Positions 3,080 through 19,623 are shown, counted from the stretch's first letter. The stretch is 20,000 bases of DNA from Catajapyx aquilonaris (GCA_000934665.2 JYFJ02001553.1:56793-76792); one strand, 5' to 3'. A program made the numbers and translations. Notes: generated from the letters alone by a model not told the origin.

Positions 3080-3960
3080 GTCGTCGTCCCACTTAACTCT
3101 GACAACACGTCGTCGTTATACTGTACTGTACAGGTACAGCTCCGTCGATATCACACTACTACACTATAAAACCCAGTCGTCTTCGTCGTACGTACTCGAC
3201 TGTACAGAGTGTACAACCCCCTTGTGCTCATACCGGCTCATACAGTATACAGTATAGTAGGAGGGGGTTGTATGTACAGTCCCTTCGTACTAATATACTA
3301 ACACAATCCAACACCGTCGTCCTCGACTGTACAGAGTGTACAACCCCCGTACTCATACAGTATACAGTATGGGCACGAGGGGTTGTATGTACAGTCAGTC
3401 CCCTCATACCAGTCATACTGTAACACAATGCAACACCGTCGTCCTCGTCGTACTCTTGTTATATACAATATACAACTGGTACAATACAGTCATCACTCCA
3501 ATCTGAAACCTCGTCATTAACACTGCGGTCCTGAAACTCAGTCGTCGTCATACCGATACTGTGCAAATATACCCTACTATGGAACACCGTCCACGTCGTA
3601 CTCGACTGTACATAGTGTACAACCCCCTCATACTCATACTGTACCACAATGAAACACCGCCGTCCTCGTCGTACTCGACGTCTCATATCTCGACTGTACA
3701 TATGTGTACAACCCCCTCGGACACATGTTGTCCAAAATGCAACACCGTCGTCCTCGTTGTATACTCGACTGTACATAGTGTACAACGCCCTCATACTCAT
3801 ACTGTACCACAATGAAACACCGTCGTCCTCGTCGTACTAGACTGGACATAGTGTACAACATCCCACCCCCCACCCCGCCCTCACACATACTGTAGGCCTA
3901 CTACAATGCAACTCCGTCCTATAGTCATACTCGACTGTTCAACACCGTCTTCATCGCTCT
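3080..3960. repeat. Degenerate minisatellite, ~70-75 bp unit
   Basis: Unit ~caccgtcgtcctcgtcgtactcgactgtacatagtgtacaaccccctcatactcatactgtaccacaatgaaa recurs with starts near 3312, 3434, 3585, 3655, 3743 and 3818. The overlapping ORFs here are repeat translations. Confidence 0.85.
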
Positions 3961-4069
3961 ACAAATATTTACTACGGGTACTACGATCACTCGATAACCA
4001 CAGGTAATCATCACCGTCAACTAGGACTCCCACCTTCAGCGACTTCGTCCCTTCGGACATCTCGCCAAG

Positions 4070-4516
4070 CACCGCCAGGAACGTCATCTGCTCGGACTAC
4101 ACGTCACCACCAGCAGGAACCTCATCATCTCCTCGGACCACCGCCCGATTGCCCAAGGAGAGGTTCCTGGCGGTGGCCAGGAACCTCTCCTTGGGGTTTG
4201 GGCAATCCCATCTTCACAATCAACGTCACTGCCACCAGGAACCTCATCTCTTCGGACAACACGTCACCGCCAGGAACCTCATCACTTCGGACAACACGTC
4301 ACCGCCAGGAATAACCGCATCTCTTCGGACAACACGTCACCGCCAGGAACCGCATCACTTCGGACAACACGTCACCGCCAGGAACCTCATCTCTTCGGAC
4401 AACACGTCACCGCCAGGAACCGCATCTCTTCGGACAACACGTCACCGCCAGGAACCTCATCATCTCCTCGGACCACCCGATTGCCCAAGGAGAGGTTCCA
4501 GGCGGTGGCCAGGAAC
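4070..4516. repeat. 35-bp minisatellite with inverted unit copies
   Basis: Unit cggacaacacgtcaccgccaggaacc(t/g)catc(t/a)ctt, ~6 near-identical copies at 4223-4460. The block ctcctcggaccac..cccgattgcccaaggagaggttcc(t/a)ggcggtggccaggaac brackets the array at ~4128-4184 and ~4464-4516. Confidence 0.9.
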
Positions 4517-5972
4517 ATCAGCCACATGAGTCATCTTGGACACCATGTTGTCATCATACCCCATAGTCATCATCACCGTCAACATTGACAATTTGGTCCT
4601 CTCCAATACTCAATAGCGAGGGAGGAGGGTGAGCGAGAGACGGTGATATTCCTCCTGAGATGACCTGAAAGATAATTATTTATATTAATACTGATCTTGT
4701 GGTTTTCAGGGTTATTCTGTGGTGGAAAAATCTGCTAACTGAACTAACCATAATAATTACATGTTGAATGCAAATAGTGTGGATCCATTTATCAGGAAAA
4801 TTAGAATCAATTTTGAAAGTAATTTATAACTTCCAAGGGTTATATATGCAATGTTATTCCCCATTTTCTCTCACCCTCAATGTTGCCCTTTTGACATAAC
4901 AACCATGACCCTGATGACCCCATCTTCCATTGTAACCTCCAATAATGCCCTTTGACCTAATGTGACCCTGATGATGATGATGACCTAATGGGCCACCTGT
5001 GCGTGTGTGGGGTGTACGTTGGACCATCTTCATCACTGAAATGTCACTATCCAGAGATGCACCATCACATCATGCGGACCATCCTCTTCACCGAGATGTC
5101 ACTATCCAGCAGAGATGTACCACCGCATCACGATGACTATCGCATCAAGGAGGACCATCCATCAGCAGAAGTGCATAAAAGTTGAAAGATGACAGCAATG
5201 TGCATAACTCGTAGGGGCCGTAAAATAGTGTGTAAGGTCATGCATTAGGTCATATGAGATATGACCATAATGCAGCAGTGCCTTACGCGCTGGAACCATA
5301 TACGAGCGTGTCATCGCATAGTGTCTTATCTTTCAACTTTAAACACGAGGTACCATATCAGCTCATCACCGTTCAGATGTCAGGAATTTTAAAGCAGTAA
5401 TTTTGGCAGAAAAAAGAGTAAAATTTGGATTAAAAATTTCTTGCGCTGAAATAATTTTAAAATTTGAAATGATTTGAAAGAAAATTGCATTGATTTTTTT
5501 TGCTAGCTAGGTGTCAGTTGAGTAGCAGGTCTGTGATGGTGACCATTCACGCTGAAACTAAATTACGCATTACTTCCAATTCAATTTGCAATAGGCTGTA
5601 ATTATAACTATCAATAATTTCCAGTCAATTAAATCCACCATTTGCATATTTACAGTACCTTCAATCACCAATTACTTATTTTAATTTAAATTATTGAAAC
5701 TGCTGATTCTTAATAATTCAGTTCAAGTGCTCTGAATAATTTCCTATTTATGTAATGTCAATTAAATTTAAACATTCATTAAATTCGGGTGTTTATGGTC
5801 ACCATCAAATCTCGGGATGCGATGTTTGTGTTTGTTTTTTGTGTCTTCCAGTGCGCAAGAGGATTGGTGAGCTTTTTGAAAAATGTTTCCTCTTCTTGAG
5901 AGAGTGAAAAAAAAAACCTGATTTCTTTGAATTAACGTACAACATCTTTCAGATGACACACTCTCACTTTTT

Positions 5973-6210: not shown

Positions 6211-6329
6211 ACGGCTTTAACTCACTTGGGATAATTTTTGCTCACTAGCCTGATAATAATTTTGCATAAATTTTTCAAGTGTATTTATCTCCATCATGGT
6301 ATTTTTCATACACAAGGGTATTTTTCATA

Positions 6330-6643
6330 CACAAGGTATTTACAGTCTCTAAGGTATTTACAGTCTCTAAGGTATTTACACTCTCTAAGGTATTTACACT
6401 CTCTAAGGTATTTACACTCTGAGTCTAAGGTATTTACAGTCTCTAAGGTATTTACACTCTCTAAGGTATTTACACTCTCTAAGGTATTTACACTCTGAGT
6501 CTAAGGTATTTACGGTCTCAAAGGTATTTACGGTCTCAAAGGTATATCTACAATATCTAAGGAACTTACGGTCTCTAAGGTATCTACAGTCTCAAAAGGT
6601 ATATCTACAGTCTCAAAAGGACAAAAGGTATCTACAGTCTCAA
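6330..6643. repeat. 18-bp minisatellite (aaggtatttaca(c/g)tctct)n
   Basis: About 15 tandem copies, degenerating towards the 3' end. It produces the spurious YLHSLR/KVFTLS repeat ORF 6238-6498. Confidence 0.95.
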
Positions 6644-7075
6644 ATACAATGAGACACGAGAAATACACTGCGTATTTCTCTTGTCTCAGTGTATTTCTCG
6701 TCCGCAATCTAGAAAGGATAGAACAATTAGTAGATAAACATTAGAGTCCAGATCAGGGTGGAAGGCACAGTGCGTATATCGCCGGCCTGTACCGCCAAAG
6801 AGCAAAGGTGGTGAGCTGATTGGTTCGTGTGATTGTGTTCATTAAATCCCCAAAATATTTGATTGGGGACAGGGCGTGATTGGCCCTGTTTTGATCTTTA
6901 GTTGTCCCATTATGGGGGCAGGTGGGAACTGGCTAATTTAATTTGACTGTAATTGTATGCATCCAGTCTGCTTGTACAGACTTGATTAGTACAACGTACA
7001 GTTGTTCTGTTGACTGCCAGTAGACTGCCAGTAGAGTCAGTGTACTAAAGATGACATCCCGAGGCGATTGCAGAT

Positions 7076-9856: not shown

Positions 9857-12572
9857 TCAGTGCTCTGACTCCGCAACAGCTTGTGCTTCAGACCCTTCCG
9901 GCTCGTACAGCCGCCTTCTCCTCTCCTCTTGCCGAAGCCTGTGCCGATTCAGTCTCCCTGGACACAGATTCGGAAGGACTAGCGTAAGGATGTAGATCAC
10001 CAGACACAACCAAGCCGATGCCATCTTGATCCAAACTGTCGCCCAGTTCTGATTGAAGTTCGCCAAGTTCGCCTTCTGCGGACTATAAGCAAGTGTGAGA
10101 TCAGTACTGCCAACAATGCAATTAGTACATACCGGAACCAGTGTGTGAGCTGCATCATGATGTACATGGTCGCCAAGCAGAAGATGAAGTGGAAGAAGGC
10201 GTAGCTGTACACGTTTCCGTCTGCTTCGTTTCTCATGACCCGCTGACCTCCGTCGTCCTCGATGCGTCTTGACCCTATGTCGATTAATATTAATTTCATG
10301 CGATATCGTACATGGAAGATGATTACCGATCAGGACAGGCCGACAGCAAGCGCACCAGGGAGGCTTCTTCCGCTGCTTTTGCGGAGTCGTGATTTTTATG
10401 CCAAGGGCCTGCGCACTACTTGACGATGTTCCAATGCTGCAATTTTAAAAGAAATTTAAGATGATCCTTCACATTATTCCTGATGAGATCTTACCTCGAG
10501 TAAATGACAGTCAGAAACATGATGACGACTCCGACTGACGGAACAATAAATTCGTTCCACTGCGCAATCTTGTCCGCAGGTCCGCAGTAAAACTTCTGCG
10601 GGCCAATTTCACCGTCGTCGCCAAAAATGCTGCGAAGGTCGTTCAGCGCTACTGCTTCACCTGCTGAGCCGTTATCAAGTTGCGGCTGACGGGGCTCGCT
10701 GCTGACTGCAGTCCAGGTTAGGTACATTACGTACACTGCGATTAAGGAGCTCTGTAAAAAGCCGGCTCTGGAGTCGCCTGTACTTTCTTGCGTGGATGGC
10801 AACACCGAGACGAACACGCCTATGACGGCAAGTCCGGCGGTGATGCCGATCAGAACCTTGTTGGTGATGCAGCCTTCAGCCGACGCAAAGTAGATGTATA
10901 TAAGGACAGTGACGGCCACGAATATGGAGAAGAACACCAGGGCGCAGAATGTCATTGCTGAAACAATTACGGATTAGTTTGCGTACAAAACACGAGAGTA
11001 GTTGTACTCACCTCCGTACCAGAAGCATGAGCTGGCCCCACCCCTGACCTTCTCCCGCCATCGATCAGTCAGGTGATGGGCAAAGTCGACCAGAAGCAGC
11101 AGCTGGATTAGGATGAAGAGGAAGGCACCCACCAGCGCAACGTACATCCAACCATACTGGATCTTGTTGAACTCCTCCGACGGTATGCTGAACATGAGTC
11201 CACACAGGATCACCAAAACGACAAACTTGACCAGCCAGTAGCCGTTGTGGGCACCTGCTCGGCAGCCGCGGGAAGTCGTTACGCCTGCAACAGGGCAGTG
11301 TAAGAGTACATACCTGTAATAAGGGTAATTAAACATGATCATTTACCTATCGTGCCAGCAGCCATACACAGGAAGAAGGCTGCCATGACAAAGGCCACTC
11401 TGTACACGGCCATGTATCCAACAAGCAGGTCGCAGTTGGTCCCCACGTGCAGCAGGATACACGTCGTGTTGAAGTGCGGCACCTGCAACGACCACCATCA
11501 TCAGCCACGGCCCACGCCTCGTCAACGACCATCCTCACCTTCCTCATAATCTCCTCCTGCACCTGGGGCGTGAGCATCAAGCACATGACGACCGACCCCA
11601 TGAACAGAAAGAACGTGTACATCAGCCTGGTGCTGGTCGACTCACGCACCGCCGGAAAGAACCGGCAGCACAGCCGGCACGTCCGCCCTCCACAGCAGCA
11701 GCTCAGCTACGAAATCAAACAAATTATTCATCATCATCATTTCACTTCACTCACTTCATAATTAACTAATACACATAAAAAGTAACTAATAATGTAGCTA
11801 ATAAATAATTAACTAATACACATAAAAAGTAACTAATACTGTAGCTAATAAATAATTAACTAATACACACACAAAGTAACTAATAATGTAGCTAATAAAT
11901 AATTAACTAATACACATAAGTAACTAATAATGCAGCTAATAATGCAGCTAATAATGTAGCTAATAAATAATTAACTACTAATGTAGCTAATAATTAACTA
12001 ATAATGTAGCTAATAATTAACTAATAATGTAGCTAATAATTAACTAATAATGTAGCTAATAATTAACTAATAATGTAGCTAATAATTAACTAATACACCC
12101 AATAAATTCAGTAACTAATACACCCAATAAATTAAGTAACTAATACACCAAATAATATATTATAGCTAATAATAACTAATGATTATTGTTGATAATACAT
12201 AATTAATATTAATAGGGATAAGGTTTATTCCAAATGGAGCAAGAGCGACGTGTGGCTTTGTCGTCAGCTGTCACCAGCTGACAATGTCTTGTTCTGACGA
12301 GTGGTGGACGTTTACGCCATTGTGCTGGGTGTTCCCTTGCTCATTGCGGTGCAAGCCTTCAATGCTGGGCCTGCCCATTGCAAATGCAGCTCTCATATTG
12401 CTGGTGTCATGACTATTCATGGCCAGCATGCAGGACCTTGAAAGGGTCTCTCTCTCTCTCTCTCTCTCTCTCCTCCATACTTCCTGCCTTGCCTTTTTAT
12501 CATTAATAATAATGCCGCGTTTAATTACTACCCTACATCTCTGCTCACCTGCACAGCACAGCAGTCCCTCAT
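9857..12572 (-). CDS. SERINC5: Serine incorporator (SERINC/TMS_TDE family), SERINC5-like; 8 exons, 513 aa
   Basis: Exons 12572-12549, 11706-11539, 11482-11347, 11284-11012, 10957-10495, 10436-10327, 10274-10133 and 10082-9857, all GT-AG and phase-consistent (1542 nt). Family motifs: MRDCCAVQLSCCCG..STSTRLMY, CDLLVGYMAVYRV, RAGAHNGYWLVKF, FILIQLLLLVDFAH, GFLQSSLIAVYVMYLTWTAVSSEP, NEADGNVYSYAFFHFIFCLATMYIMMQLTHW, WATVWIKMAS. Subfamily assignment rests on the N-terminus only. Confidence 0.93.
11758..12190. repeat. AT-rich compound minisatellite in SERINC intron 1
   Basis: Units of ~47 bp (taattaactaatacacataaaaagtaactaataatgtagctaataaa) are followed by ~23-bp units (taattaactaataatgtagctaa). 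Confidence 0.9.
12447..12472. repeat. (CT)n microsatellite in SERINC intron 1
   Basis: Run of tctctctc... read directly. Confidence 0.9.
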
Positions 12573-13159: not shown

Positions 13160-13482
13160 GTAATTAATAAACAATTAATTCACCTTAAATCACTTGGCAT
13201 TAATTTTGACATCTTGATCATTTAATTCATAATAAAGACATTAACACTTTAATTAACCTTATAATAATGGAAAATGAAATTGATTTGTGTGAGCATTAAT
13301 TAACACTTAATCCACCTTAATGACCAACGAAATTTAAATTATTTCAGTTATCTGCTGCATCATTTAATAAACCATTATTAATGTACAAAGAAATTGAATT
13401 ATTTGAGTAATTGTAATTTTTTTTTCTTCAAATTAATCTTAAGCATTAATTAATACAACAACTTAATTCACCTTAATGAGTA
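13160..13482. repeat. Degenerate AT-rich tandem repeat between the STAG-like 3' end and the SERINC start
   Basis: ttaat(t/c)caccttaa recurs near 13175, 13307 and 13463; the last two copies are preceded by agcattaattaa. Confidence 0.55.
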
Positions 13483-13549
13483 CTTGTCAAATATTCTGAA
13501 CCTCATTGCATCAATGTTACATATATTAACCCCCAAAAAATTGTACATA

Positions 13550-16500
13550 TTAATCAGCGAGATCTGATGAGTCACTTTCGCTAATTGTTCCGGCTTGCAT
13601 TATCGCAGTAATTGAATCGATGTCGCTCTCTAATGACACGAGGCTTGGTGCCTCGCTCGTCACGAATGACGAAGCACGACCCCTGAAAATTAATGTGTAA
13701 AAATTATCAATTATTAATTATATCACAATAGAGACAAAAGCTTGGTAATAATTACCTCTTTCGGCGTGGCGTGCCAGCCGATGAAGCATCGCTCACATTG
13801 CCCTCGCTAAATTATAGAAATAATTAAATTGTAATGAGACTGGAATTGCAGAAATTATAATTATTGCAAAACTATACTCACATTTCTGGTGGAAGACGCA
13901 TGAGCGGTTCTGCAGCGAACAAAAACCATGTAATTAGGCGCAACAATTAATGCGACCCAGTGTTTAAAAAATATCTTACCTCTCTTTTTCCTAACGAGCC
14001 GTGCAAGTTTCGCAAATTTCAGCTTCATATTTGCGCAGTATTCGAACACTGTGAGCCACGACTTGTGGCTTCGAGCCGGTGTCGCTCCAGCCAGTTTCTG
14101 ATCCAGGCGACTGATTCTGAACAAATAAAATATATTGCGGTTAGACAAATTGTTGCGCTGCGAAATGTGTGAAGTACTCACACGACACTTGCAAGGTGCA
14201 CGGCCTTTTCACATACGACTTTCAACACCGGGATTATCCAGAGATGAACCGCAGCTTCGGACTTGAAATCCGGATCTGATCCAAGCGCAAGGTCTACGGC
14301 ATCCGCAATGAACTCCTCAGCCAACTGCCTCGTAGTTTGATCATCTTTGGCGAAGAAAATTGACAAATCCGCACCGAGTTGCTGGAAAGACAATTTGTCA
14401 AAAAAGTACCGCAGAAGTCGGCATGGGTCGTACCTTTGCTTCACGAATAGCTTCAATTGGAATCCCATCGTATGAAGCAAGTAATGCATGAATCACAACG
14501 ACTCTGAAGTGTTCACGGTTTTTAACCACAAGTACTTTCAGGTACTTGGTGACAACCACATCGAAATGCGGCTTCCCCTGAAAATTGTACAGGACGAAAC
14601 GGATTCCGTAACGTACATTAATTCATCTAGGATGAAACGTACCTTGCCAAAATATTTGAAGACCCGTCCAATGTGTGGTGGCGGGAGCATCTGCAGGACG
14701 GCAAGCTCGCAGTAACTCTGCATCATGTTGTCATGATCATTCTGCGTCTCTTCCCTCAGATTTTCTGTGGTTAATCATATTTACGTAACGGCCTGGATAT
14801 TTAAAGAGAATTCTGTACTTACCAATCGCTTTTAACATTTGTTTGCAGATAATATCCGCTAGTAATTTAGTTGGCATCTTTCTTATCGTTGCTAGGTCCT
14901 GACGAGTACTGTATTGCGCTCCAAACGTAATGAAGATCTTGCAGGTAGTGACGAAGGACTGTGAACAAATTAATGTGGAATGAAATACACGATATGCCGC
15001 AATTAAAGAAATACTGACGCAATAGTGCAGCTCGCAAAGGTCATCTCTCTTCATAATGTTGGCCAACAGCTTCACGAACAGGTCCGTCTTCCGCTCGATC
15101 TCCTCCAAACTTTGCTGGACTGTCCCGCGAGGCTTACCCGCAGCGTTCGATACGTCCCATGCCAAACTTGAGAAGCAAGCGAGGATGCAGTGGTTCACGG
15201 CCTGTCGAAAAACGCACATTACGCTCGAGCGATATTAACAGTGCATAACAAACCTTATGGCTACGGGATCCTTGGTCCAAACTTTCCTCGACGTGAATGG
15301 CGAGCGAATCCCACAGCTGACATTGCATCATATTGGTATGATTGTAAAGACTCGCTACTTTCTCACAAGCGGTGATCAAATCCAAGTCGTCACAATCTGT
15401 ATCCTGAAAACGACATATGTTCATCACCGTAATTTTACGCAACGAGAGATCAACTTACATCCCATCGCTTGTTGTACTCATCCGTCACCATTTCCGCTAT
15501 CCCATCAATCATGTCAATACAAAAAGCACCTCTGTACGACCCCAATATTCCGACAGCTTTCGATGCAAGTTGGATCACCTCCGAGTCCACATTTTCTTTA
15601 ATGACATCCTGCAGCAACGACAGACAGCTGCGGATCTGATCTTCGTCAACCGTCAACCCCGGACTGAGATTCAGATATTGCGGCAAGTACAGGATGTGTA
15701 CTAAAGTGTCCGGCAAGTTCTTGAACCGGCTCAACATGTCGGGAAGTACTCGCATCAAGTGAGCTGTAAGCGCTTCTTTCTTCTTCGCTAGGATGTGCCG
15801 CTGACTTATCTTCTGCGGGTTTAGCCGATTAGTGCGGTACATTGTACTTCACTTAAAACAGTACAAACCGGTTCACTTCGAGGTCCCGACCCATTGAATT
15901 CCTGCTCAGCGCTGAACTTCAATAGTTGAACCAGAACCGACTCGTCCTGATCAGGCAATGAATCCAGCAGCATCTCGCTCATTACATCCCAATCTTTAAT
16001 AACACTGTGCGAATCCAGTGATTCCACGACCAGATGAATCGAGTCGGTCAGCTGGAAATTACAGCAATTATTTAACGGCGAGACATATCGGCCCATACTT
16101 ACCTTCTGCTCTAGAATGAACTTAATCAGAAGCTGGACATACACTTCATTAGTTTCCGCTAGGTCCTGATCTTTTACGGACATGGCCAGTCGGCTCATCA
16201 GGTACTGTCCGCCTATGACGGCCATTGAGTTGTCGGAAAATAGCATCAGCTTCACCATACGTTTGTGGATGTTCTCGTCAACCAGCGACGGCTCACTTCT
16301 ACATTGCAATAAGTAAATATAATAGTGCAGACAATTTTACATGTTACTTACTTGTAAAAGGCAAGAAGCACTTTCGCAGCCAGAGGTCGTAATGCCAAAT
16401 CTTGACTGACAGTCAGATTCAGTATTTCAATCAGATGATCCAGCGTGAACTGGGTCATGTACGAACTAGTTTCAGGCAACGACAGAAGTTCGAGCAAACA

Positions 16501-17664
16501 CTGAAAAATGTCCCATGTTATTCTCTCAACAATTGTACAGACAACGATACCATACCTGAAGACCCGCTTTCCTTGCTTCCTTGTCCACATCACGGATCCG
16601 ATGAGACAATGCTGTCCGGTTGTCATTATGCGACAGTATCTCATCCGGCCAAAGCTTGGCCCAGTCTGTCATTCCTCGTACGACAGCAATTCGTACGCTC
16701 ACGACCGGATCATCCCGTCGCTTCTTGCAGATTCTGTTGAGTATGTCCTTGCCGATATCACAAATTTGCTCACTTTTGCGCATCAACTTCTGATATTCTG
16801 CCCCGTCTGAATCTTCCAGCCGGTTGTTCAATTCCAGTAAAATCTGAATGATTCCGTTTAACAGGTTGAAAGCTGTAAAAATTTACGTCAGCAAACGTGC
16901 GACTCATTATTGGTATCATTACGTACCTGCTCGTACTCCAACCATCCGCAAGTAAGCCAACTGAATGGATGACAATTCACGCAAGAAGTCAACGAGCACT
17001 TCCATGAAGTTGGAATGACGCAGAACTGCGTACGGAATGTTTACGAACAATTTCTGCATGAATTCGTCCAATGTCGGCAGCAGCTTGTTGCTCCCTCGTT
17101 GGGTCAGGATGCGGTCGTTACGATGTTGCTGTAAATTAATATACTAATTAACAACACATGCGTTTTAATAACTGTTCGTACCAAATGCGCCTGGTTCGGT
17201 CCGCCCATTAACGCTGCGATCACATCCTTTGTCACCAGCGGATTAGTGCGGATCATCTCTTCGGTGACCTTTGCGTTTATTCCACACACGTGAATGACCA
17301 GTTGCATTATACGGAGCAGAGGCTTGTTCTCATCTTGCTCGTAATCTTTGTATAGCTTGCGCACAATGTACTGTAAATGCGTGAAATAAATTTATGAATT
17401 GCGTGTCTGTGCGGATTATACTTGCCTCTATTTTCAGCTTCCGTTCTGTTATGTCGTAGATGATGCTGCCACGTTCAACTTCATCTAAGCCGAACTTCTC
17501 AACCCTTGTTATTGGGCTGCCTGCTGTTGTGGCCTTTCGCTTCCGGGTAGTCTTCGGAGTACTCGCTGCAAATAAAATTAATTATCAGTCACATATACAA
17601 TATTGTACTAAGTACGGTACAACATTGGATAACGTAAATGCTGAATTATCAAAAAATTGTTCAT
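13550..17664 (-). CDS. Highly divergent stromal antigen (STAG/SA/Scc3) cohesin subunit, ~19 exons, ~1007-1020 aa
   Basis: Exons: (17664 or 17625)-17616 [uncertain], 17565-17426, 17370-17182, 17128-16927, 16872-16556, 16500-16352, 16298-16103, 16051-15869, 15812-15459, 15403-15254, 15201-15019, 14958-14823, 14764-14643, 14577-14434, 14381-14182, 14116-13980, 13909-13882, 13806-13756, 13682-13550 (TAA). Introns are 50-75 bp, phases are consistent and there are no internal stops. Collinear STAG-like blocks: YKDYEQDENKPLLRIMQLVIHVCG (cf. [21 protein letters not shown]), FMEVLVDFLRELSSIQLAYLR, RRDDPVVSVRIAVVRGMTDWAKLWP, IKDWDVMSEMLL (cf. LKDWECMTELLL), LTAHLMRVLPDMLSRF..ILYLPQYLNL, VIKENVDSEVIQLASK, VFKYFGK. 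Confidence 0.85.
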
Positions 17665-17802
17665 GTTTCCAACGCTTCTTGCTGCAATCCGACTCCTTCA
17701 ACGTACAGGATGTGTAAGCCGACTCCTTTTAAAGATAAGAGATTCAAAAGTCATCATTTGCTCCTCTGCACTGCATAGCAACAGCCGCAGTTTCCCATCA
17801 CG
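17665..17802. promoter_or_regulatory. Candidate compact bidirectional promoter / 5' UTR exon shared by the STAG-like and ankyrin genes
   Basis: The genes are head to head. A + strand donor G|GTAAGT at 17803 and acceptor TTGCAG| at 17981 suggest a 5' UTR intron of the ankyrin gene. The 10-mer CCGACTCCTT is repeated at 17689 and 17719. Confidence 0.45.
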
Positions 17803-17990
17803 GTAAGTCAAAAAATATTAATTGACCAAACTGTAATAAGCTGCATTAGTACGTAACTGTTTTTAAAAAAGGTGGTAACAAATAATGATTATGATTCCAG
17901 CTAAATCCAGTTTGTGTACAGAACGCTAAGTACTTTCAATCCTTTTAAAAGAGTACGGTACTGAACATGTCACCGTTGCAGGTCCGTACG

Positions 17991-18856
17991 ATGGAATTCC
18001 TGGAGGCCTGCAAGACTGGAAATATACAGAAAGTCAGGTACAATGTGGATTTCTATGCGGACAGCAAACTGATGGAGGTGATGGACCGATGGGACAGAAC
18101 CGGACTTCACTGGGCAGCCTTAATGGGAAAGGCCGAAATCGTGAAGCTACTTGTTGATTGCAAATGGCCTGCGAACCAAACGGACGCTGAAGGGAAGACC
18201 CCGCTGTCCCTGGCCGCATCGCAGGGACATGTCGGTATATGCCACATGCTCATGGTATCCGGGGCATCCGCTGGACTGCAGGATAAGTTTGGGATTGCCG
18301 CGATCCACGTGGCTGCCAATCTGGGACACGTGTCGACAATCAGGGCATTGCTGCAGGGCGGTGCATCACTGCTGCACACCAAATGCTGGAGCGGAGACCA
18401 GCCGCTTCATATTGCGGCCAGGGCAGGGCATATCGATGCGGTAGCACTTTTCCTGGAGAACGGAGCTAACTTGGACGCCCAGGGACATAACGGTCGGACT
18501 GCGTTGCACGAGGCGATCCATGGCGGACACTTGCGCCTAGCCGGCTTTCTTATGCACAAAGGGGCTCGAGCACAGATCAAGGACCAAACGGGTCGCACCG
18601 CAGTCGACGCCGCCCAGGAAAAGGGGTATGACTCGCTGTTCAATCACCTAGATGACAATGTAAGTACTTCACTGGCTCATTAGCCATGTAATTAGTGTGT
18701 TAATCATTGCAGAGATTCCTGCCCCTAAACGACGCATCGTATTGCATGCTGCTGATCATCGCTACCGTCCTCGCAGCATACTGGGTGTTGAAGTCCTGCT
18801 TAGGTCTGGATGCGAGCGATCCATTCAAGACAATTTCAGGCTCTCTGTACGGCTAA
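17991..18856 (+). CDS. Ankyrin-repeat protein (~6 repeats) with C-terminal transmembrane helix, 270 aa
   Basis: Exon 17991-18659 carries ANK consensus repeats (DRTGLHWAALMGK, GKTPLSLAASQGH, GIAAIHVAANLGH, GDQPLHIAARAGH, GRTALHEAIHGGH, GRTAVDAA). Intron 18660-18712 is GTAAGT..TTGCAG, 53 bp. Exon 18713-18856 encodes RFLPLNDASYCMLLIIATVLAAYWVLKSCLGLDASDPFKTISGSLYG*. Confidence 0.88.
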
Positions 18857-19473
18857 CAATGGTGGGACAAATTGTTGCAATAATAATCAATTGTTAGGGC
18901 ATATTGCATATGTAGTTTAATATTGCTCTACGTTTAGTACCGTAGTGGACTGTAATGAAAAGTGCGCACGTACTTGCGGTTGGTACATGTCGTCTCTTAG
19001 GTCCCATCGCTGTGTCAGGCTATCCTGTTTTAACCCCCCCAAAAAATTGTATTAGCAATATTGAAAGCAATTGAAGAAAGTAATAAAGCAACATAAAATT
19101 TAATTGTGAATTAAACCTGTTTTTTTAGCCTTTTTTCACATATGTATAAGCTCCAGGATTATTTTGCAGCTTCCTAATATGTCCTGCTCCTGTGTGACCT
19201 ACACTCACAAAAGGACAAAGAAAAATGACGCCATCAGCAATTGGTCCATTTGAATATGTAAAAAAAATGGAAAAGATATTCAATTGAAGGTCAGGTCGCC
19301 CCATCAACATATCAAAGGAGCCATTTTTTGTCCTGTTTCAAACGTGCCCGCAAAAACATCATACACGGTCATACACTTAAATTTTCACATCATATCTGCC
19401 TGCATTACACTGTTAAATTAATTTATAATTAAGACACTTTTCATCGTTTGAATTTTCCGCCTTTTGGATACAT

Positions 19474-19623
19474 TGAAGCCCAAATGTGTCCGCCATCTTG
19501 CAACTCCATCCATCACGTGACTCCCATCCGCGGTTCACGATTGGTCCAATTCGACACCCAACATGGCCGCCAGTGAAGCCGAAAGTGTCGTCCGCCATCT
19601 TGCTACTCTATCCATCACGTGAC
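19474..19623. promoter_or_regulatory. Duplicated ~50-bp module carrying YY1-like (CCGCCATCTTG) and E-box (TCACGTGAC) motifs
   Basis: gtccgccatcttgcaactccatccatcacgtgac (19488-19521) and gtccgccatcttgctactctatccatcacgtgac (19590-19623). ATTGG/CCAAT and AACATGGCCGCC lie between the copies. It may be transposon-internal rather than a promoter. Confidence 0.4.

Follow-up and report, generated by a model that had tools for sequence, protein, structure and literature searches.

In cohesin, the SA subunit (stromalin, Scc3 or STAG) binds the middle region of the alpha-kleisin and contributes to the grip of the complex on DNA, and SA/Scc3 ranks among the most conserved cohesin parts. Meiosis-specific SA paralogues from independent duplications have been described in vertebrates (STAG3) and in fission yeast (Rec11), and Daphnia pulex carries five SA copies, SA-A to SA-E, some of which are proposed to be specific to meiosis or parthenogenesis and which form a clade near other arthropod SAs (PMC2680839). 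In Drosophila, SNM (SA-2, stromalin in meiosis) binds the kleisin-derived protein UNO and DNA and acts outside canonical cohesin, with UNO homologues reported only in brachyceran Diptera (PMC9767379). SUNN (sisters unbound) is the SA subunit of the non-canonical SOLO-SUNN-SSEP meiotic cohesin, and its conservation is described as largely restricted to Diptera (PMC13693663). This study analyzed a 20,000-nucleotide (nt) stretch of DNA (JYFJ02001553.1:56793-76792, Catajapyx aquilonaris), referred to below at its full length as the window and numbered from its first letter, which carries on its minus strand a gene for a highly divergent SA-family protein. An earlier reading of the sequence, the original prediction, had placed at 13550-17664 an intact SA paralogue and candidate meiotic or germline cohesin subunit; the results presented here tip the balance modestly towards a second, specialised SA gene over the housekeeping SA.

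Membership of the spliced protein in the SA/Scc3/STAG family, as judged by alignment, is secure because the protein matches an SA profile as one collinear domain (profile positions 74-1058 of 1211 to protein residues 17-928, 152.7 bits, 985 profile positions), with the controls far below: the best of 200 shuffles reached 3.8 bits, the reversed sequence scored -1.3 and two unrelated long proteins fell outside the 20 best scores. The profile was built from 30 canonical SA proteins, taken from 120 listed of 409 matches, and covers arthropods, molluscs, annelids, a brachiopod, a nemertean, a nematomorph, echinoderms, a hemichordate, amphioxus and vertebrates. The homology search behind it was limited to proteins longer than 1190 amino acids (aa), which places shorter SAs, Diptera and Coleoptera outside the sample and the tree; the dipteran SA is presumably shorter than 1191 aa and hence outside the sample. 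The single profile domain agrees with the predicted collinearity with stromalin along the HEAT body, and the tails are short as predicted, with the alignment starting at profile position 74, ending at 1058 and leaving about 87 residues after it.

The individual exons point to the same family. Among the 13 open reading frames (ORFs) scanned against Pfam, HEAT_SCC3-SA (PF24571) was the sole family above its own cut-off (25 bits) and matched three of them, with 50.1 bits (E 4.8e-13) for exon 9 alone and 26.1 bits for the ORF over exons 7/8. The original prediction had named the STAG and SCD models as checks, and here the outcome was mixed: the SA family was found through HEAT_SCC3-SA, the STAG model (PF08514) reached 16.3 bits on exon 4 alone, below its cut-off of 25 (profile positions 10-64 of 114, in a domain that crosses an exon boundary), and exon 5 alone gave no SCD match. 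In the PDB, exon 9 matched a human SA-1 chain (residues 563-665, E 1.5e-05), and 9 of the 10 matches listed were human SA-1 or SA-2. Searches with four canonical SAs by tBLASTn also found the gene, weakly (best E 7e-09).

The gene model consists of minus-strand stop-to-stop ORFs at 13550-17600 that overlap head to tail and are chained by GT-AG introns and one GC-AG intron into a single frame of 19 coding exons (3048 nt, 1015 codons, stop-free, with a single terminal TAA at 13552-13550). The 17 introns within 13550-17664 measure 51-75 nt each, and G+C was 48.1% in exons vs. 34.2% in introns in the provisional gene model, before its 5' correction. Being multi-exon, the gene is not a retrocopy. 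Transcript support was obtained from one public run of unrecorded type (X1), which contains 0.48 of the sampled words. Five X1 contigs were placed on the window with 0 differing letters and 13 joints; these contigs are spliced on the window, and run X1 is therefore RNA-derived. All 13 joints coincide exactly with predicted introns (2, 3 and 8-18), so that 13 of the 18 introns are confirmed and the SA locus is transcribed and spliced as modelled. Even the 60-nt intron 11, which is in frame and stop-free, is spliced out in X1 (joint 14958/15019). The GC donor of intron 2 is otherwise near the GT consensus, and its use is shown by a spliced X1 contig. Introns 4-7, bridged by no X1 contig, are supported by GT-AG signals, by the reading frame and by a collinear fit to SA proteins; the X1 coverage gap at 16072-16533 provides no evidence either way.

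The 5' end was revised with the same data. An X1 contig over exon 2 extends 5' by 239 letters, outside 13300-17900, and the first 30 of these letters, the ones that were checked, match 18978-19007 exactly; the ATG at 17664, the start in the first model, was thereby ruled out. An in-frame stop lies five codons before the ATG at 19007-19005, and the GT donor at 18973-18972 lies in the phase required by exon 2, leaving an intron 1 of 1408 nt. The gene would extend from approximately 13502 to approximately 19216, the latter limit being placed there because the loose end is 239 letters long (30 checked). Of the originally predicted span, the 3' end at 13550 was retained and the start at 17664 was replaced by a first coding exon at 19007-18974, according to the X1 contig. 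The predicted approximately 19 phase-consistent exons and stop-free frame of approximately 1010 aa correspond closely to the 19 exons and 1015 aa found, and the expression of the gene, raised in the original prediction as a matter to examine, is now documented by the spliced transcript in X1.

The protein is remote from every canonical SA to which it was compared. Its identity to each of the 30 canonical SAs was 18.4-21.8%, in line with the very low identity predicted by eye, whereas canonical pairs share 42.7-86.5% (median 53.9%). The nematomorph SA, the longest-branched canonical SA sampled, is still 42.7% identical to fish SA1. The terminal branch measured 8.2 substitutions per site (LG+G4) in trees that included partial proteins of the cat flea and 10 (LG+C20, LG+G4) in trees without them, approximately 30 times the median end branch of 0.26-0.28; evolution faster than in canonical SAs, as the original prediction had anticipated, is thus evident. 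Near-invariant columns (at least 97% identical in canonical SAs) were kept at 59 of 184 positions, with gaps at 7 and no region spared. Judged from its sequence, the protein is an intact, exceptionally divergent SA-family member.

The loss extends to the conserved essential surface. The conserved SA surface is, in human work, a docking site for shugoshin, CTCF and partly WAPL: SA2 Y297 and W334, together with L329, L366 and F367, form two hydrophobic pockets for the YxF motif of SGO1, and CTCF binds in the same mode, with W334 and R370 critical (PMC10279526). Yeast mutations at this surface impair Scc3 function, according to work cited in PMC13693663. Within the present sample, all 30 canonical SAs share Y297, L329, W334, L366 and F367, and 16 of the 30 share R370. 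At the aligned positions the divergent protein has Y297 replaced by R, L329 by R, W334 by H, L366 by Q and R370 by D, keeping F367 alone of the six; the nearby invariant positions R305 and D338 are kept. Of the 120 canonical SAs listed, 119 carry the SCD (PF21581). The SCD columns align to exon 5, and this exon, tested singly, gave no SA-family Pfam match at E<=0.1 and no SA match in the PDB at E<=10. In the alignment, the helix scaffold is recognisable and the ligand pocket is not. A check of SA2 D793, which we take to be a kleisin-contact residue, was dropped, the reference row there being an odd splice form in which the numbering fails.

A neighbouring gene provided a calibration of rate. 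The Serinc (serine incorporator) gene at 9857-11706 on the minus strand was recognised by the Pfam Serinc family on four ORFs (E 1.5e-24, 3.1e-27, 1.6e-12 and 4.6e-11), and the look-alikes of a Serinc exon in Protein Atlas were Serinc clusters whose taxa gave no guide to the lineage; two Serinc exons scored higher in the PDB to human SERINC3 than to Drosophila TMS1d. Identities to human SERINC3, hand-counted on printed alignments in two blocks and amounting to a calibration on one gene, were approximately 35/88 (~40%) and 38/102 (37%) for the window Serinc vs. approximately 36/86 (~42%) and 50/100 (~50%) in the matching blocks of an annelid Serinc. Relative to fish SA1, the SA protein of the window is 19.9% identical and the SA of that annelid 50.9%. 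The drop in SA is set against a mild drop in Serinc, and the divergence of the SA protein is therefore far beyond that of the neighbouring gene. From these comparisons, the acceleration appears to be gene-specific, leaning towards a specialised paralogue.

Several results nevertheless weigh against a second SA gene. No second SA-like gene was found in the 20-kb window by tBLASTn with the four canonical SAs. The word-based homologue search with exon 9, set to longer proteins, gave nothing at E<=0.001, the exhaustive HMMER search with the same exon gave nine matches at E<=0.001 and 0 at 1e-10 among 1.84 billion representatives, and a scan of metagenome contigs gave 344 pattern matches and 0 relatives of the SA protein. 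Trees holding the protein outside hexapods or pancrustaceans exceeded the quick free tree by 8.6 log-likelihood units (p-AU 0.70, LG+G4), and since such trees are unrejected they permit no conclusion on the lineage or on the place of duplication. One Serinc block is clearly more divergent in the window (37%) than in the annelid (~50%), and one Serinc exon has as its best database relative an annelid protein with 36% identity; the lineage is therefore either moderately fast or poorly sampled, and a sole divergent SA gains some plausibility from this. Under that alternative, the animal lineage, fast-evolving and poorly sampled, would have no other SA/Scc3 gene; the product would be an ordinary cohesin subunit, divergent because the whole lineage evolves fast and because its partners, equally divergent, have co-evolved with it. 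The lack of a close relative of either the SA gene or Serinc in the collections searched, the nearly equal distance (18-22%) of the protein from all 30 canonical SAs, its lack of a firm tree position and its expression are each compatible with this account, which is unlikely but has to be taken seriously. It would have to accommodate, however, the replacement of four of the five pocket residues that all 30 canonical bilaterian SAs have in common, on a surface that is critical according to PMC10279526 and to the yeast work in PMC13693663; the identity to fish SA1 that even the nematomorph SA retains; and a Serinc only mildly more divergent than the annelid's beside a fall in SA identity from 51% to 20%. 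A specialised second SA gene is considered more likely than a sole SA because the surface is invariant in all canonical SAs sampled and functionally critical in the literature.

Two further accounts concern whether the gene has a function of its own and whether it belongs to the family at all. The extreme divergence, the loss of invariant residues in all regions and the nature of the best library matches, which are flea SA-1-like fragments with non-SA stretches resembling decayed copies, would all suit a duplicate that is transcribed but, with constraint relaxed or absent, is turning into a pseudogene; this is improbable, however, in view of a 1015-codon frame open over 19 exons and 13 of 18 splice junctions used exactly in RNA, given that an unconstrained sequence at approximately 8-10 substitutions per site would lose its frame, its splice sites and its collinear 152.7-bit alignment. 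Less probable still is a misreading as SA of a generic HEAT protein or of a different kleisin partner built of HEAT repeats (Pds5, Nipped-B/Scc2, or a CAP-D- or CAP-G-type condensin protein). One ORF has a marginal PDS5 match (E 0.11), and the language-model look-alikes of exon 9 in Protein Atlas are generic ARM/HEAT families and not SA, but HEAT_SCC3-SA is the only Pfam family above cut-off, the listed PDB matches of exon 9 are nearly all SA-1 or SA-2 and lie at the collinear position, a single collinear domain spans 985 SA-profile positions, and neither of the two unrelated long control proteins entered the 20 best SA-profile scores.

If the gene is a specialised second SA, its product may act in an unusual complex. 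The overall stromalin scaffold is kept, suggesting that the protein has probably retained its hold on a kleisin or on a partner derived from one, and with the pocket lost, regulators of the YxF/FGF type (shugoshin, CTCF and partly WAPL) probably no longer dock. The resulting cohesin or cohesin-derived complex would escape the usual release and protection control. A germline or meiotic role is suggested by analogy only, with STAG3, Rec11, SNM, SUNN and the Daphnia SA copies as precedents, and the protein fits a pattern seen several times in this same set. More tentatively, it is possible that a second SA-derived subunit which has shed the pocket works with a non-canonical or kleisin-derived partner in an undescribed meiotic cohesion or homologue-conjunction complex, which would parallel the dipteran SNM-UNO and SUNN-SOLO pairs but have arisen independently of them.

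Each of the described systems resembles the window protein in part. With canonical SA/stromalin/Scc3 (human STAG1/STAG2, insect SA), it shares collinearity from the region of the STAG domain through the HEAT body, the HEAT_SCC3-SA match, a basic N-terminal tail and a Ser-rich C-terminal tail. It differs in having shorter tails, 18-22% identity against at least 43% among canonical SAs, an SCD that is unrecognisable alone and one of the six pocket residues. Compared by description, SNM is also a divergent SA-family protein, and the role proposed here would be of that kind by analogy, but SNM is called 'highly similar to stromalins' (PMC9767379), unlike the protein of the window. SUNN, likewise compared by description, is a very divergent SA-like protein of Drosophila and other Diptera; DmSUNN keeps surface-like residues needed to bind SOLO (Y252, R260, D294, L308, F325 and V343; PMC13693663), whereas here the equivalents of the pocket tyrosine and tryptophan are replaced. 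STAG3 and Rec11, also likened by description, belong to unrelated lineages. The Daphnia SAs fall in an arthropod clade, whereas the window protein has neither a settled position nor a close relative in the collections searched, NCBI proteins included.

The best exon 9 matches among the 1.84 billion representatives were Ctenocephalides felis proteins named 'cohesin subunit SA-1-like' (27-29% identity), and the three named clusters among seven weak-match proteins looked up were all such cat flea SA-1-like fragments. In quick trees, the protein grouped with a lepidopteran SA and the flea fragments within the pancrustacean set; in one tree the grouping with the flea fragments had an SH-aLRT of 100, which may be long-branch attraction. 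The flea fragments are 444-700 aa long and less divergent, scoring 209-265 bits over 470-700 aa against the SA profile. In five of them (P0001, P0003, P0008, P0010 and P0011) the N-terminal part includes long stretches without an SA counterpart in the alignment, and the flea set has the appearance of a family of SA copies that are decayed or chimeric. A mixed alignment of weak matches and exons was tried as a search query and rejected as too messy, owing to the flea proteins with long non-SA stretches.

An intact, expressed SA whose pocket is replaced would constitute a natural experiment on the SA scaffold without its regulators, and a specialised second SA, if true, would be another re-use of cohesin parts for a meiosis-specific linkage. 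If the gene were instead the sole SA of its organism, a surface regarded as "essential" would be dispensable in an animal, which would be the more surprising outcome.

Table 1. Parts of the SA gene in the window, listed 5' to 3' along the gene (UTR, untranslated region)
Feature	Position	Strand	Evidence
Exon 1: ~209 nt 5' UTR (extent inferred) and first 34 coding bases	18974..19216	-	Phase-1 donor; X1 loose end
Intron 1 (1408 nt), houses plus-strand ankyrin-repeat ORF	17566..18973	-	X1 loose end; sequence read
Exon 2, basic N-terminal tail	17426..17565	-	Joint 17370/17426 in X1
Intron 2, GC-AG, 55 nt	17371..17425	-	X1 joint; plus strand ends CT..GC
Exon 3	17182..17370	-	X1 joints on both sides
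Exon 4, carries part of STAG domain	16927..17128	-	Joint 17128/17182 in X1; Pfam PF08514 E 0.0094
Exon 5, aligned to SCD/conserved essential surface, degenerate	16556..16872	-	SA alignment; X1 contig over 16571-16807
Exon 6	16352..16500	-	Splice signals and frame only, no contig cover
Exon 7	16103..16298	-	Splice signals and frame; spanning ORF HEAT_SCC3-SA E 1e-05
Exon 8	15869..16051	-	Joint 15812/15869 in X1
Exon 9, 118 aa, best-conserved piece	15459..15812	-	HEAT_SCC3-SA E 4.8e-13; human SA-1 E 1.5e-05
Exon 10	15254..15403	-	X1 joints on both sides
Exon 11	15019..15201	-	X1 joints on both sides
Exon 12	14823..14958	-	Joint 14958/15019 in X1 skips 60 nt
Exon 13	14643..14764	-	X1 joints
Exon 14	14434..14577	-	X1 joints
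Exon 15	14182..14381	-	X1 joints
Exon 16, end of HEAT body	13980..14116	-	X1 joints; profile alignment stops at model residue 928
Exon 17, 28 nt	13882..13909	-	X1 joints
Exon 18, 51 nt, Ser-rich with basic cluster	13756..13806	-	X1 joints
Exon 19, acidic Ser-rich C-terminal tail, TAA 13552-13550	13550..13682	-	X1 contig continues to 13502

The ORF housed in SA intron 1 lies on the plus strand at 17949-18683; it has 244 codons with ankyrin repeats (Ank_2 E 2.9e-35, Ank E 3.1e-30) and is probably a nested gene, to judge by these matches. Upstream of the inferred SA 5' end, at a distance of approximately 270-400 nt, a 34-nt direct repeat (19488-19521 and 19590-19623) occurs in two copies that are 94% identical and 102 nt apart. 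Each copy holds CACGTG and a GCCATCTTG-type motif, which we take to resemble an E-box and a YY1-type site, respectively, as candidates.

The window as a whole has the look of an animal genome with short introns. At 630-1187 on the plus strand, an ORF contains a UNC-6/NTR/C345C module (E 1.8e-11) and probably corresponds to the C-terminal exon of a netrin-like gene running off the start of the window; a netrin-type NTR module, as matched, fits an animal. The region at approximately 3100-4600 is C-rich (GC skew -0.32 to -0.21), open in several frames and contains Pro/Ser/Thr-rich repeats, and at 6235-6750 each of the three plus-strand frames translates the short tandem repeats there into recurring peptide units.

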